Shown here piece after piece: positions 6,001 through 12,000 of a stretch of DNA of 64,000 nucleotides (position 1 is its first letter; each line of letters opens with the position of its first letter). The DNA comes from Candidatus Tantalella remota (lineage in GTDB: Bacteria; Omnitrophota; Gorgyraeia; Tantalellales; Tantalellaceae): positions 11,735 through 75,734 of the forward strand of contig JAVCCB010000050.1 of the NCBI GenBank assembly GCA_030765685.1, in the 5' to 3' direction. Made by a program: the position numbers.

Positions 6001-9000
6001 TATATTATGCTCTTGTCAATCGTCTCATGGGAGAGGAAGATGTGGACGTCGCGAAGGTCGTCAGGGCGCTGAAAGCGCGTCCTGATATGTTGTTGCCGGA
6101 GGTCCGGTCACATGAAGACCTTGCCATGACTCTTAGGGAATTAACGCACAGGGTCAGGACCGCTGTTAAGGATTCCAGGATGGTTATTGAAAAGATGAGT
6201 AGCGATGAGTCGATTGCGCGATATGTAACTGATTTTCTTGTTTCAGCCAGAGTGTATGACCCGGAACCGGAAAAGATCATGGAGGCCTTATATGCCAGGC
6301 TTGGTGTCGAAGTCATTAAGGAATGGGAGGAGATCAGGGCGTTAAGTACAGCGATGTCTTTTTTTGGAGTGCATCTTACTGGTTATCTGGCTCGTTACAG
6401 GCAGATATTCAGGGACGGATATAAATATTCATATGGAACAATTCTGTCAGTTATAGGACGGCTTATGGTCCTATTCTCTGAACAGGAAGGGATTTCAAAG
6501 GATGAGTTTCTGGGGAGATTTAACGGGACCGAAGACGCCCACGCTCAGATACTGGAGATAGGAGGGGGGCTTCTGCATCCCGTCCGGGATTATTTTCATG
6601 CCGCTGAAAGCGCCAGAGAATTTGTCGATAGGCCCGTAGGTCTCAGGAACCTGGAAGTGCTTAATCTGGACCCCTTGGTGGAGGAGGATGCCCAGAACGG
6701 TATATTCAGAGGAAACGCTCTGAAAATGCAAAATTTTAAGAACGAACAGTTTAGTTCTATTTTCTGTACGAATGTTCTTAATCCGGATTGTTATGGAACT
6801 TATCACGATGTAAATAAAAGATTCTGGGAGGAAAATTTTCCTGAGGAGAGGGCGATGGATGAAGGCGCTTATTATCAGAAAATAGCTCTCGAGTTCTATC
6901 GTGTTCTTAACCCGGGGGGGCAGGTGTTTATCATTACCGGATCTGAGTTCAATGAGGATCTTAATCGTATTCTGCTGGATGCCGGGTTTAAGCTGGTCTT
7001 TAGTGAAAGTAACAGGACAGGGTGTAATGTTTTCAGGAAACCTAAGGAAGAAGACCTGAGTCTTACAGAAAGACGTATATATACCATGAAGGCAATTGGC
7101 AATATCTCGGAATTTATAGAGGGGCAGCTTGCCTGGATGGAAGACGCTTTCGAGGGGATCTCTGAAGATGGTCCGCTTAACGCGAAGGATATCGTGTCCC
7201 TCAACATAATAAAGAACGGTATAAATCATATAGACAAGGCTCTTAGGGGGGGGCTACCGATGCCGTTAGCTGAAGACTTCAGGCAGACATTGCAGACCGG
7301 AGGGAATATGGCCGCATTCGACCTCCCCAACAGGATGCTCCCGGTGCTGATACTGATCGGAGATGTTTTGAGTGAAGGAGAGATGGACCAGAAAGCTTAC
7401 GATGATATCAGGACGTCCATCGGATCCTTGAAACGTATATTGTTATCACTAAAAACCGCCCGGGCCGGAAGGATCTCATTCGTGAAGTGGGAAGAGGATC
7501 AGAGAGAACTGGTTAATTTTCGCGACTGGGAAGCATTGCCGCCGATCAACAGCATGGAATGGAGAGCGTTTCTTTTGCTGCAGGGCCATACTAGTGTCCT
7601 CGAAAAAGTACAGACGAGGGATGAGATCCTGAAATGTTTTGATATATACGCGAATGACCTGATCAAATTCACGAAACTCCATCTTGAAGGCAGACTGCGG
7701 GAGCCTGAGGATTCAGAGGAAATGAGTTTGTATGCTTACGCGCTTAGCTATCTGATGCAGGTGGATCCGGAGCGGATGCGTACCATAGGAGAATTCGCCA
7801 GAAAAAGAATAAGGGAGTCAGAAGGAGGCTATTCAGCAAGTTCCGCGTCCATAATAAAAATAAAGCAGTTGGTGGCGCCGCGCATGCCCTTGAGGGAATA
7901 CGCGATCAAAGTAGCGCCCTGGCTGGAGGAAGGTCTTTTTTTTACGATACCGCTTGTCGCGGGCAGTCTTCTTTTCGGGTTGGATAGTGTGTGGACATTT
8001 ACCGCTGTGCTGGCGGCAAGGGGATTGTTTTTCGTCCTCCATGAGGGAGCCCGACCGAACGCGTCCCCGGCGGAATATATATTCCCGCTTTTAACGGCCG
8101 GTTTCGGCAGCGTGTTATCTCTCGTACCAATATTTTGGTCGTCCGCCACAGCAGCCCCGCTTTATTTTATTCTTGTTTCAAGTATTGTTTCGTTCATAGG
8201 ACATCTTAGCGGCAATATTCTCGCGTCGCGTTACAATATGACGCCGGCATCGCTGGATGATGACGAGTCTTCTAGTTCCTCAGAGGATGAGGAGAGCTCT
8301 TCATCCTCAAGCTCATCGGAAGACGGCGTGCCGCTGTGGAAGACGGAATTTTTTCAGGCATGGCAGGATGTTGTTTCTGGTAATAATGTGACTCATTTTG
8401 ATGATATCCCGCAGAATCTCAGGGAGCGTCTTAACTCTGATCATGAGGGCAAAGCTTTCGTCCAGAACCTGGATAAAATACGTGCCGCCACCCATTATAT
8501 TTTTGAGCATATGAGTGACGAGGACAGAGACGTAGCATTCAGGTTTATAGATAACCTTGTGGATGAAATGGGTATAGCCGGATGGACGCTGGATGACTTT
8601 GAGGATCTGCATGGTGTAAGGGCGCTTGTAAGGAATCTTCTGATAGTGGCATGCAATGAAAAAGCTATTCCCGAGCGTGTCAAGGGAGTCACCAGGGGGA
8701 TCACCGAGGGAATAAGTCTACTCGCGTACTATATGGAAAGAAGCATCTGCGTAGCCCGGTTATACGAAACTATGGGTCCCCGGTTCAAGGAGATATCCGC
8801 CGTAACAGAACCTTCTTTTAGGGGGGCGCCCCAGGGAGAGAATGACCGAGAGTATCACCAGCGTCTCGCGGAACTGGCCCCGTATAACGATATTTTTTAC
8901 AGGAACATACGCCAGCAGATGGAAGGGCAGTATCTTGAAGAACTTCCGGTGGAAGGTTCCCACATGAGAGCGTACGGGAACGATGCCCTGCCGTTCGTTG

Positions 9001-12000
9001 TAAAGGTGCCTATTGACGGCGCGGTCAACGTAGAGGGGCAGCCGGTGGATTTCGACCGGGACATCCTCCCGGGAGTGATCCTGGCCAGGAAGAGGTTGGG
9101 CGGACTGGCGGCGAATACTCACGCTATGCACAACCTTGCGGTAAACGTCAGGGGTTTTGAATTTACATTCCCGAATGTTGTTATTCAGTCAAGAGTGACT
9201 CCGCTGCGGGAAAAATTTCATGAACTGGCTGAAGAGGGAGATGATGCGTCCTTTGAGGAGATCAAACAGATCATAAGGATGTGGTGGGAGCTTCAGGTGG
9301 AGATGTGGAAGAGGGGAGTGGTTGACGCGGATATAAAACTGGGAGACAATTACGGGTATGATGAGCTTTCGGGCAGAGTAGTTATTTTTGATTATACGAA
9401 CATTTACTCGGACATGTCAAAGTTCTGGAACGAAGATCATTACGAGAAGATCAACGACCTGTTCAGGCTGACGAACGGTCATATGCTGGAGCATGAGACC
9501 GGCAGTCACGATATCGCGGATCAATATTCCTATATAGGAAATGATGTGTTTAGAGAGCACGGTGTAAGTATAGCGGGATGGGGTGAGGATGTAAAGGTAT
9601 CCGTATGGCCGACGGAAGAAGAGCAGCTGCTGGAGGAAGTCTTTGTCCCGCTTAATGATCCTTTTATGGTGAATTCAAGTGAGTTGGCCCGGATGATCCC
9701 AACATTGCGTCATATGCTGGTAGACGTGACATCTTCGGATGAGGGAACTTCCGGGGATGTTGTAGAAGAAATATTGAGTAAGGTCCGGGACGATATGTTG
9801 TGGTTCCACGCTGATCGGGAACTAGGGATGAGTAGCGGATCGACACGTACTCCTGACGGGGTCATGCGAAGGAATATGACTCCGAGGCAGGAAGAGCAGC
9901 TGATGAAGCCGATGATGCTTCTTCCCTTCGATGTGGATCTGTCAGCGGTAGCCGATATAGTGCCGCAGCAGATGATCCCGGTCATATACCAAGTGCTTTC
10001 CGACGGGGAATTGTTTTCTTCCCTGAAAATAGAGGTCGGAGATATAGACAGGGTTGCTGTTGAAAAAATAGCTCCGGCCATGGGGAGGGATATTGTTAGA
10101 TTAAACATACACACTGGCGAGACAAACAGGCGGTTGTCGGTGGTCCTTTATAAGAGGGGATACAATCTCCCGGGAGTGATCGCCGATCCGTATGAACGTG
10201 TGGCTACGAGGATAGTGCAGCTTTACAGGACTTTCAGCCTTCAGGAATACGCGGAAGATCTGGGAAAGATAGGCGTTTCGGGGAAACATGTTATGTCGAG
10301 GATACAGGATGTATTCAGGGGGTCGATATATAGTGAAGAGCTGGAGCATTTTGACGCCGGAGGGGATGCCACGGTATATACCAACGGGGACAAATCTATA
10401 GTAGTGAAGGATCTTGTGAAAGAAGACAGGGATATTATAAAGAGGGGTCGCTTGCACGACGAAACAGAAGAGGGTCCCATAAACGGATATCTGCTGGCCA
10501 GAGAACATCTTGGGCACCAGGTTATACGGTTTTTTATAGTAAGAGATCTGGATGTGCGCATAAAAGATAAAGAGGGCAATCTTAAGAAGAAGAGGATCGA
10601 GCGCGCGATCATACAGAAGAGAGTGCAGGTTTTCTTTAAAGAGCACAGACATGATGTCCGTATAGGCAGGCGCCGATACATTGGTATACTCGCGGACGCG
10701 ATAGAGAACGGGGAGATGGATATTGCCAGGATGCTCATCGATGAATTTTTGATAAGTATACGTTACATGCTTACAAGAGGCGTATTTGACTGGGACGTCA
10801 AAAGCGAGAACTACGGATATGATCCTTCTGTCGGGCATATAGGGTCGCTTGACTCAGGGAAATTTCAGGCGGGCTCGATGACCGACCCGTATCACGGGAA
10901 TGTATTTTTGAGGAACATGCAGGCTACACGCAATGATATAAAAGAGTGGACAACCGCGATGATCGGCCGCCGGAACGCGGAGGAGCTTGCCGGGTATTTT
11001 GAAAGAAGGGTGAGAGAAGTCTTTAGTGTGTCAGATTTTGATGTTGATATAACGAAAGATATACGGGAGATACAGGAAGATGACGATTTTTCAGAGGTTA
11101 TCAGGTGGGACCTTTCGTCCAGTAGGGGCGGGATCCCTGTCTGCTATACGGGTACGGAAAAAATGAGGGCAACTATGGCGAAGCATATAGCGGTATGTCT
11201 GGAAGAATCTGGCGTAAGGGTCAGCGATCTTGAAAGGTTATTTGCCTCCAGAGGTTTTCGGGAGACCAGGAATGACCATGAGCGGTCAGTTATCTTGGGG
11301 CAGCCGTATTATTCGTCATATGTGGACTATGAAAATATCAGAGATAGCACTTATGTAGGCATAAAGGTGCGGGAGATGACCGACGCTCCCACGGCCAGAC
11401 AGGTGATACATAGCAGAAAATACTGGAAGAGAGATCTGTCGGATGAAAATATCGAGGAGATCCAGAAAGCTGTAGTGAAAGTTCTTCTCAGGTTTTATTT
11501 TCATACACAGGAGACATACAATGCTCTTGCTGAGCTTTTTGACCTGGACAGGGCTACCCGGGTCACAGACAGGCTGTCCATGGAACTGGAATTTAAGAAG
11601 ATCGACAGGGATGTTCTTACCGATGAGCAGAAAAAATTTCTGTCCAATATGTTAAGCATCACCGAATACGGAAATCTGAGACAGGATATTTCGATAGCGT
11701 TTGATAAACTGAAGGAGGAAAGGAGATATCCTTTTGACGCTACAATGGATGATCTTGTGATCAGGAAAGAAAATAAGAAGTTTTATGCCGAGATAACTTC
11801 CTATGGAGGCATGGTGAGAAAGGGGCGCGAGGTGGAGGCGGTAGATCATATGCACAGGTATTTGCGCATACCGTATGAGACTATACTGGAAGCCCTTTTA
11901 GAGGAGAAGGGGAGGACACAATCGGCTATTTTTTGTGAGAGGCTGTATTATCAGGTAAAAGACGATACGGAGCAAAAAGACATTGTGCGGCGTAAACTGG

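Follow-up and report, generated by a model that had tools for sequence, protein, structure and literature searches.

We analysed a stretch of 64,000 nucleotides (the window) from the genome of Candidatus Tantalella remota, a member of the Omnitrophota (GenBank assembly GCA_030765685.1, contig JAVCCB010000050.1, positions 11,735 to 75,734). Its second gene, gene 2, encodes a megaprotein that exact-sequence look-up and taxonomy identify as NCBI entry MDP8299153.1, "hypothetical protein P9L88_04545", from a Candidatus Tantalella remota metagenome-assembled genome (MAG). A signal-anchor-like helix and an N-terminal domain are followed by a predicted S-adenosylmethionine (SAM) methyltransferase-fold domain, a four-helix membrane module, a tract of serine and acidic residues, two kinase-like domains and a long C-terminal region (Table 1). 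The two kinase-like domains and their relationship to the kinase AceK are our main subject.

Table 1 Features of gene 2 and of the genes downstream, in window coordinates
Feature	Position (nt)	Strand	Residues	Basis or remarks
Gene 2	3900..13214	+	3104 (open reading frame, ORF)	Holds all features discussed for this protein; ORF list and translation
N-terminal hydrophobic segment, signal-anchor-like helix	3921..3986	+	8–29	Preceded by 3 basic residues; hydropathy scan, flanking charges
N-terminal domain, ChaN/Tiki superfamily, with long helical insert	4047..5489	+	~480 in length	Boundaries approximate
Divergent class I SAM-methyltransferase-fold domain (predicted)	6537..7049	+	~880–1050	Alignment, sub-threshold profile match, AlphaFold2, Foldseek
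Conserved four-helix membrane module	7851..8255	+	1318–1452 (135 in length)	Hydropathy, conservation
Ser/Asp/Glu low-complexity tract DDDESSSSSEDEESSSSSSSSEDG	8256..8327	+	1453–1476	Directly after helix 4
AceK-like kinase-like domain 1	8922..9437	+	Core 1675–1846; modelled unit ~1649–1886	
AceK-like kinase-like domain 2	10335..10877	+	2146–2326	
C-terminal region	10878..13211	+	~775 in length	Conserved in relatives, without recognisable family
Gene 3	13400-22582		3060 in length	Megaprotein
Gene 4	23090-27655		1521 in length	Megaprotein
Mannan/mannose utilisation cluster	27835-41391			Downstream of genes 3 and 4

The strings RGVVDADIKLGDNYGYDELSGRVVIFDYTNIY (residues 1805–1836, nt 9312–9407) and RGVFDWDVKSENYGYDPSVGHIGSLDSGKF (residues 2293–2322, nt 10776–10865) each comprise the catalytic loop and the Mg-binding loop of one of two paralogous kinase-like domains. 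An earlier reading made from the sequence alone had described them as two repeats of ~60 residues; the repeats are real, paralogous and equipped with kinase catalytic loops, but the repeating unit is ~170–250 residues long. BLASTP between the two halves of the kinase region aligns 126 residues at 25% identity (E = 5e-4), and a hidden Markov model (HMM) built from stand-alone proteins of the same family recognises both domain 1 (residues 1675–1846, E = 5.5e-57) and domain 2 (residues 2146–2326, E = 5e-19). This model finds no third copy in a six-frame translation of the window. The key residues are K1702 (strand 3), D1811 (catalytic), K1813, N1817 and D1831 (Mg-binding, at the DFG position) in domain 1, and K2170, D2299, K2301, N2304 and D2318 in domain 2. 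K1702, D1811, N1817, D1831 and all five residues of domain 2 are invariant between gene 2 and its close homologue P0001. Both copies have a Lys two residues after the catalytic Asp (D+2), as in Ser/Thr protein kinases, where the analogous residue is K168 of PKA (PMC3747045).

An exhaustive HMMER search, for which the query was a profile of gene 2 residues 1477–2400 and P0001, the sole close homologue, places the domains in a family of 101 cluster representatives (E ≤ 1e-3), most of which share a ~170-residue core that matches gene 2 residues ~1668–1848. A word-indexed search with the kinase region had returned only one relative. Members occur as stand-alone proteins of 207–330 residues and within giant proteins of 1–6.5 thousand residues, which carry up to eight copies each, and those with a named source are mostly from Omnitrophota. 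The family signature is G-x-x-x-x-A-Y...FV(V/I)K ... LGGL ... (I/V)Q-K-V ... RG-x-x-D-x-D-x(4,5)-N-Y-G ... D-x-G, with the strand-3 Lys, catalytic Asp, Asn and Mg-binding Asp near-invariant throughout. No Pfam or NCBIfam model covers the family.

An AlphaFold2 model of residues 1625–1905, built with a 50-sequence alignment, predicts a kinase fold for domain 1 with high confidence (pLDDT 90.2, pTM 0.83). Three strands of the N-lobe and helix C are present, as are two long strands and helices D and E; a catalytic loop, a pair of short strands and two helices at the C terminus complete the model. Comparison of the model with the PDB using Foldseek gives 69 matches at E ≤ 1e-3, and the best 50 of these 69 are all kinases or kinase-fold proteins. 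The ten best are all AceK (E = 1.2e-9 to 5e-7, TMq 0.51–0.58), after which come GCN2, ROP5, Stt7, BMX, PRPK/Bud32, Rio2, LegK7 and PknB. The family profile also finds AceK first among PDB sequences (E = 0.0018 and 0.01), aligning 147 positions from the Gly-rich loop to the DFG position and pairing the conserved residues of the family with AceK K336, D457, N462 and D475. K336 is the lysine that holds ATP in AceK, and D457, N462 and D475 form its catalytic triad (PMC3747045). In a Pfam scan of 50 family members one matches AceK_kinase (E = 7.4e-4), and none matches a Kdo, WaaP, WaaY, APH, RIO or Pkinase model at E ≤ 0.1; gene 2 has no Pfam match to AceK, regulatory domain included.

Profile and model together support a protein-kinase-like (PKL) fold for these domains, with AceK as the closest relative by both routes. 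The sequence-only reading had proposed this fold and specified the WaaP/Kdo-kinase type. The fold is borne out by the profile search, the model and Foldseek, and the type is not: such kinases are missing from the Pfam matches of the 50 members and from the 50 best structures, where AceK lies nearest. Searching the literature for AceK-like families of these phyla brought up no description, and the family appears to be new, uncurated and AceK-related.

Upstream of the membrane module, alignment and modelling lead us to accept, for residues ~880–1050, a predicted class I methyltransferase fold that is divergent and has a plausible site for SAM. The methyltransferase motif that had been read at nt ~6900–6945 is present inside this fold as VLNPGGQVFIITG (residues 1002–1014, nt 6903–6941). 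It had been called a post-II motif, but LxPGG is motif III in the nomenclature of Kagan and Clarke. Motif I is ILEIGGG (residues 884–890), and the acidic post-I residue lies within LNLDP. A word-indexed homologue search with the region found nothing; BLAST against giant relatives later yielded P0005 and P0006, which align to gene 2 residues 4–1307 at ~39% identity and are the only two homologous copies found beyond the window. Motif I (LE(I/V)G-x-G), an Asp at the end of strand 2 ((I/L)DP), GN-x-LKM and motif III (L-x-PGG) are invariant in the alignment of the three proteins. The expected profile match exists, in that Methyltransf_11 is hit by all three aligned members (best E = 0.0019), but every hit is below the Pfam gathering cut-off of 21.2 bits, the gene 2 domain reaching 14.6–14.8 bits over the last 19 profile positions only. 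The remaining weak Pfam matches of the region are likewise to methyltransferase families, and its top three PDB sequence matches are methyltransferases. The AlphaFold2 model (pLDDT 63.6, pTM 0.64) has the expected strand order, terminal hairpin included, and 148 PDB structures match it at E ≤ 1e-3; the top 50 are all class I SAM methyltransferases (E = 1.6e-5 to 3e-4). The Rossmann-like seven-stranded fold of this class is therefore recognised with a caveat, because confidence in the model is moderate.

Four hydrophobic helices had been read at nt ~7900–8230, and they are found at nt 7932–8225 as segments of 17–23 residues (residues 1345–1361, 1364–1380, 1394–1413 and 1420–1442, with mean Kyte–Doolittle values of 1.98, 1.80, 1.78 and 1.54). 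Together with N-terminal residues 8–26 they are the only stretches of gene 2 that exceed the threshold in a hydropathy scan. The cluster is a conserved module, more than a generic anchor: it is 41–49% identical in P0004, P0005, P0006 and P0008, where it precedes or follows the kinase region, and it travels as one unit. Invariant residues mark the start of helix 1 (E1343-E1344), the end of helix 2 (R1375 and F1377xxxH1381) and the end of helix 4 (H1435xxxN1439), with spacings of 38 residues from E to H and 54 from H to H; the polar ones all lie at the same membrane face. A second copy in P0006 is split between helices 2 and 3 (residues 2372–2439 and 2691–2757) by an insert of ~250 residues, so the "HEGARP" loop of the module tolerates large insertions. 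The Ser/acidic tract, which had been placed at nt 8255–8330 and is present there, is conserved in no relative, the homologues diverging completely at this point; because of this it reads as a putative lineage-specific disordered linker that joins the membrane module to the kinase region. Gene 1 (window 189-3470, 1,093 residues) has its own cluster of four hydrophobic helices (residues 207–310), without detectable similarity to the gene 2 module, and gives no convincing Pfam match.

The ends of gene 2 are shared with other long proteins. By BLASTP, its N-terminal domain recurs in gene 3, in the relative at loci L001 and L002 (including L001 g5) and in many kinase-bearing giant proteins; gene 3 begins with the same N-terminal helix and a ~500-residue domain at 30% identity over 527 residues. 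Two of the eight aligned members match PF04187 (Cofac_haem_bdg), a ChaN/Tiki-superfamily model (best E = 5.4e-7). This domain (gene 2 residues ~50–530) has the motifs IQDAH ... EG ... GGxH and is split by the helical insert of ~350 residues, for which matches to EF-hand proteins are weak and probably spurious. The C-terminal ~775 residues are 38–40% identical to L001/L002, P0003, P0005 and P0006, and have no match in Pfam, NCBIfam or PDB profile searches. Direct Pfam, NCBIfam and PDB sequence searches with gene 2 and its pieces gave only sub-threshold matches.

Genes 3 and 4 both encode phosphoglucomutase/phosphomannomutase (PGM/PMM) domains I–IV followed by the catalytic and cupin domains of type I phosphomannose isomerase (PMI), and share a stretch of ~400 residues at 54% identity (the C-terminal 401 residues of gene 4, 1121–1521, against internal residues 2299–2700 of gene 3). 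The mannan/mannose cluster downstream encodes two ABC permeases, two GH113 mannanases (one with an F5/8 type C domain), a Mann_GBD/CBM27 protein, an ROK protein, a solute-binding protein, a PMT_2 glycosyltransferase, a GT2 protein and YdjC. The window opens with the end of a glycoside-hydrolase-like ORF, read in the third forward frame from a first codon at nt 3, that contains a WDIFNEPE motif. From ~42000 to 64000 the G+C content falls from ~0.48 to 0.34–0.40. This part carries a RepB/PriCT primase, DUF3987, a GmrSD endonuclease and a type I restriction-modification system (two HsdM, HsdS, HsdR), and looks like a mobile or defence island. Nearly all long ORFs of the window are on the + strand, and GC skew is positive throughout, with cumulative skew climbing steadily.

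Among relatives of gene 2, the enzyme between the N-terminal domain and the kinase region varies. Gene 2, P0005 and P0006 have a methyltransferase there, L002 has a polytopic GT2, and P0003 has DUF4922 with a HAD phosphatase; further modules found in relatives are Pkinase, TIM, PPDK_N, GAPDH, His_Phos_1, GT9, NUDIX, Methyltransf_11 and HAD. The pairing of a gene 2-type protein with a PGM/PMM megaprotein is conserved in L001 (a Mono Lake sediment contig) and L002 (MAG CAYVIW010000047.1). The two records are 99.9% identical, and the gene 2 homologue is one ORF of at least 2,293 residues in L002 and three genes in L001, a difference that probably comes from frameshifts in one assembly. L002 is labelled "uncultured Planctomycetia"; the close gene 2 relatives with a named source (P0004, P0006 and P0008) are Omnitrophota.

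Two preprints describe long proteins of Omnitrophota in which methyltransferase, kinase, PGM/PMM and sugar-phosphate enzyme modules are tiled; these proteins have an anchor or a signal peptide at the N terminus and numerous transmembrane helices, and the topology predictions for them contradict one another (bioRxiv 10.1101/2023.11.21.568195; 10.64898/2026.06.07.730766). Gene 2 belongs to this class by origin, membrane anchoring and the tiling of unrelated enzyme modules. A megaprotein that combines methyltransferase and kinase-like modules had been taken as unusual from its sequence; because both preprints describe such proteins, the architecture is typical for Omnitrophota. AceK is not mentioned in the searched parts of either preprint.

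What the kinase-like domains do can be judged from their residues and surroundings. We infer that domains 1 and 2 are more likely to be active phosphotransferases than pseudokinases, with Mg-ATP binding and phosphate transfer most likely, because both copies retain the ATP-binding Lys, the catalytic Asp, the Asn and the Mg-binding Asp. The sequence-only reading had leaned towards a pseudokinase or atypical kinase on account of the replaced histidine. The pseudokinase leaning is unsupported: the missing HRD histidine is not evidence for it, because AceK is an active kinase that shares the loss. That the domains are catalytically dead, acting as scaffolds or nucleotide sensors within the megaprotein, would fit the lack of any evident conserved helix-C glutamate in the family alignment and the occurrence of up to eight copies per protein, which could be structural; with the catalytic set intact and near-invariant across the family, we consider it unlikely. 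A different fold, that of SAICAR synthase (PurC/IPK), was suggested by a weak NCBIfam match of residues 1783–1850 to PRK13961 (E = 1e-3, 18 bits against a cut-off of 251) and by a DxKxG motif in domain 1. The fold search does not bear this lead out, as the 50 best Foldseek matches of the confident model contain no PurC or IPK and the model matches AceK and protein kinases only, and the 147-position alignment with AceK also speaks against it, making this fold highly improbable. For the substrate, a protein such as a neighbouring or in-cis enzyme module is slightly favoured, because the structural neighbours are protein kinases and the D+2 lysine is present, by analogy with the action of AceK on isocitrate dehydrogenase. 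The gene neighbourhood speaks for a sugar or a glycan instead. Many small-molecule kinases have the PKL fold, and the domains might act on mannose, manno-oligosaccharides or a lipid-linked sugar and feed the adjacent PGM/PMM-PMI megaproteins. The locus is dedicated to mannan and mannose, with its two GH113 genes, mannan-binding module, ABC sugar transporter, ROK protein and PGM/PMM and PMI megaproteins, and the L002 relative carries a fusion of the kinase region with a GT2 glycosyltransferase. We nevertheless hold a small-molecule or glycan kinase to be a possibility of the weaker sort, given that the nearest structures are protein kinases (AceK and eukaryotic-type), that APH, ChoK and Kdo-type kinases do not appear among the 50 best Foldseek matches, and that both gene 2 copies have the D+2 Lys of Ser/Thr kinases.

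The four-helix module invites a comparison with CPBP/Rce1-type glutamic intramembrane proteases, of which it could be a divergent core, cleaving either the megaprotein itself or a partner close to the disordered linker beside it. FxxxH is one motif of CPBP/Rce1 proteins. Their defining motifs are EExxxR and HxxxN (PMC11980579). In the module, helices 1, 2 and 4 carry invariant EE, FxxxH and HxxxN, all at one membrane face, a combined pattern that a regular expression recovers in none of 200,000 shuffles of the module, and the module's conservation and its mobility as a unit, split P0006 copy included, also fit a protease core. Set against this, a Phe replaces the Arg of EExxxR, the pattern was noticed post hoc, no Rce1-like or CPBP match appears in Pfam or NCBIfam even at E = 10, and hhalign against one bona fide CPBP protein gives a probability of 0.2%. 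A PDB profile search of the module likewise offers no CPBP support, its ankyrin matches being spurious products of the loop "LHEGARPxAxP..PL", and a tblastn search for further CPBP sequences in plasmids returned none. We therefore treat a protease core as tentative. Less probable still is the joint reading in which the kinase-like domains, as a minimal AceK-related family that would be the first wide relative AceK has outside Proteobacteria, would be built-in regulatory kinases, the four-helix module would be a CPBP-type protease cutting at the linker, and gene 2 would be a self-processing polyprotein.

Membrane topology bears on all the enzyme modules. We tentatively place all modules that would use ATP or SAM on the cytoplasmic face, because the number of internal helices is even, which would put both large soluble parts on the same side, because the segment before helix 1 of the module is basic (5 K/R), and because gene 3 carries sugar-phosphate enzymes behind the same N terminus.

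Our overall interpretation is that gene 2 is probably a membrane-anchored multi-module Omnitrophota megaprotein, comprising a divergent methyltransferase-fold domain, a four-helix module, a non-conserved Ser/acidic linker and two AceK-related kinase-like domains that are most likely Mg-ATP phosphotransferases. Both domains would belong to a new family related to AceK, transfer phosphate from Mg-ATP and be held at the membrane alongside a SAM-methyltransferase-like module. Several observations weigh against parts of this interpretation. The E-values linking the family profile to AceK are marginal (0.002–0.01) and the TM-scores to AceK moderate (0.51–0.58), confidence in the methyltransferase model is also moderate (pLDDT 64, TMq 0.3–0.4), and none of the gene 2 modules matches a curated Pfam or NCBIfam model at threshold. 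The lack of an evident conserved helix-C glutamate, noted above, belongs here too, as do the gene neighbourhoods of stand-alone family members, two of which were examined and gave no consistent functional clue: one member adjoins SecA and an S8 peptidase, and the other sits in a NUDIX/PnuC/NrtR cluster. As to topology, the N-terminal helix carries its basic residues on the N-side, and the N-terminal domain belongs to the ChaN/Tiki superfamily, whose members are often extracytoplasmic. Some stand-alone family members (P0018 and P0030) have N termini that resemble signal or lipoprotein signal peptides, such as MRKFRKEVSLKIISIIIGSLCLCSPTLYSC, a sequence feature that suggests export for part of the kinase-like family. 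The soluble modules of gene 2 could accordingly lie outside the cytoplasm, where the supply of ATP and SAM would be uncertain.

AceK is generally regarded as a lone and highly divergent branch of the kinase-like superfamily, narrowly distributed. A compact AceK-like family of about 100 cluster representatives gives it relatives for the first time, and allows some of the extensive unannotated sequence in the long proteins of Omnitrophota to be named. It also provides a testable handle on megaprotein function, ATP-dependent phosphorylation beside sugar-phosphate enzymes, and sharpens the question of which side of the membrane the enzyme modules face. Should the CPBP-like motifs prove real, they would suggest that these megaproteins undergo proteolytic processing.

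Compared with AceK itself (PF06315; PDB 3EPS, 3LCB and 6K5L), the gene 2 domains have the same bilobal kinase-like fold, in which the Lys, catalytic Asp, Asn and Mg-binding Asp line up, and neither protein has the HRD histidine. The Asn is at D+5 in AceK and domain 2 and at D+6 in domain 1, and the segment of strand and Mg-binding Asp is very similar, reading GRVVFYDYDEI in AceK and GRVVIFDYTNI in gene 2. The catalytic-loop Lys is at D+4 in AceK, whereas in gene 2 it is at D+2, as in eukaryotic-type Ser/Thr kinases. Unlike AceK, the gene 2 domains lack the N-terminal regulatory domain; they are only ~15–16% identical to it and have nothing above the Pfam threshold. The domain 1 model covers only about a third of AceK (TMt 0.28–0.31), leaving the full-size domain and the substrate-recognition insert unmatched. 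AceK is found in Proteobacteria, whereas the present family is found in Omnitrophota as a unit of ~170–250 residues, either stand-alone or in one to eight copies within giant proteins. Rio2, Bud32/PRPK and eukaryotic-type kinases are second-tier structural matches (E = 3e-5 to 7e-4, TMq 0.33–0.47) with a similarly reduced C-lobe. The family differs from Pkinase and RIO1 in that 0 of the 50 members match those Pfam models and in its motif context, RGxxDxD....NYG...DxG.

The methyltransferase-like domain resembles class I SAM methyltransferases of the Methyltransf_11/25 type in its predicted strand order and terminal hairpin, motif I, acidic post-I residue and motif III. It departs from them in scoring below the Pfam gathering cut-off, in an insertion of ~35 residues between strand 4 and motif III, and in the absence of the third Gly of GxGxG. 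With the CPBP/Rce1 intramembrane glutamic endopeptidases (PF02517) the membrane module shares three motifs in the same order at the same membrane face, comparable spacing and a four-helix core; unlike them it lacks profile-level similarity and the Arg of motif 1, has only four helices and lies in the middle of a megaprotein. The closest system to gene 2 as a whole is the class of long multi-enzyme proteins of Omnitrophota, as described in West-Roberts et al. 2023 and the 2026 complete-genome preprint. At only 3.1 thousand residues gene 2 is at the small end of the class, and it has the N-terminal anchor, internal transmembrane helices, tiled modules, poor annotation and ambiguous topology of these proteins.

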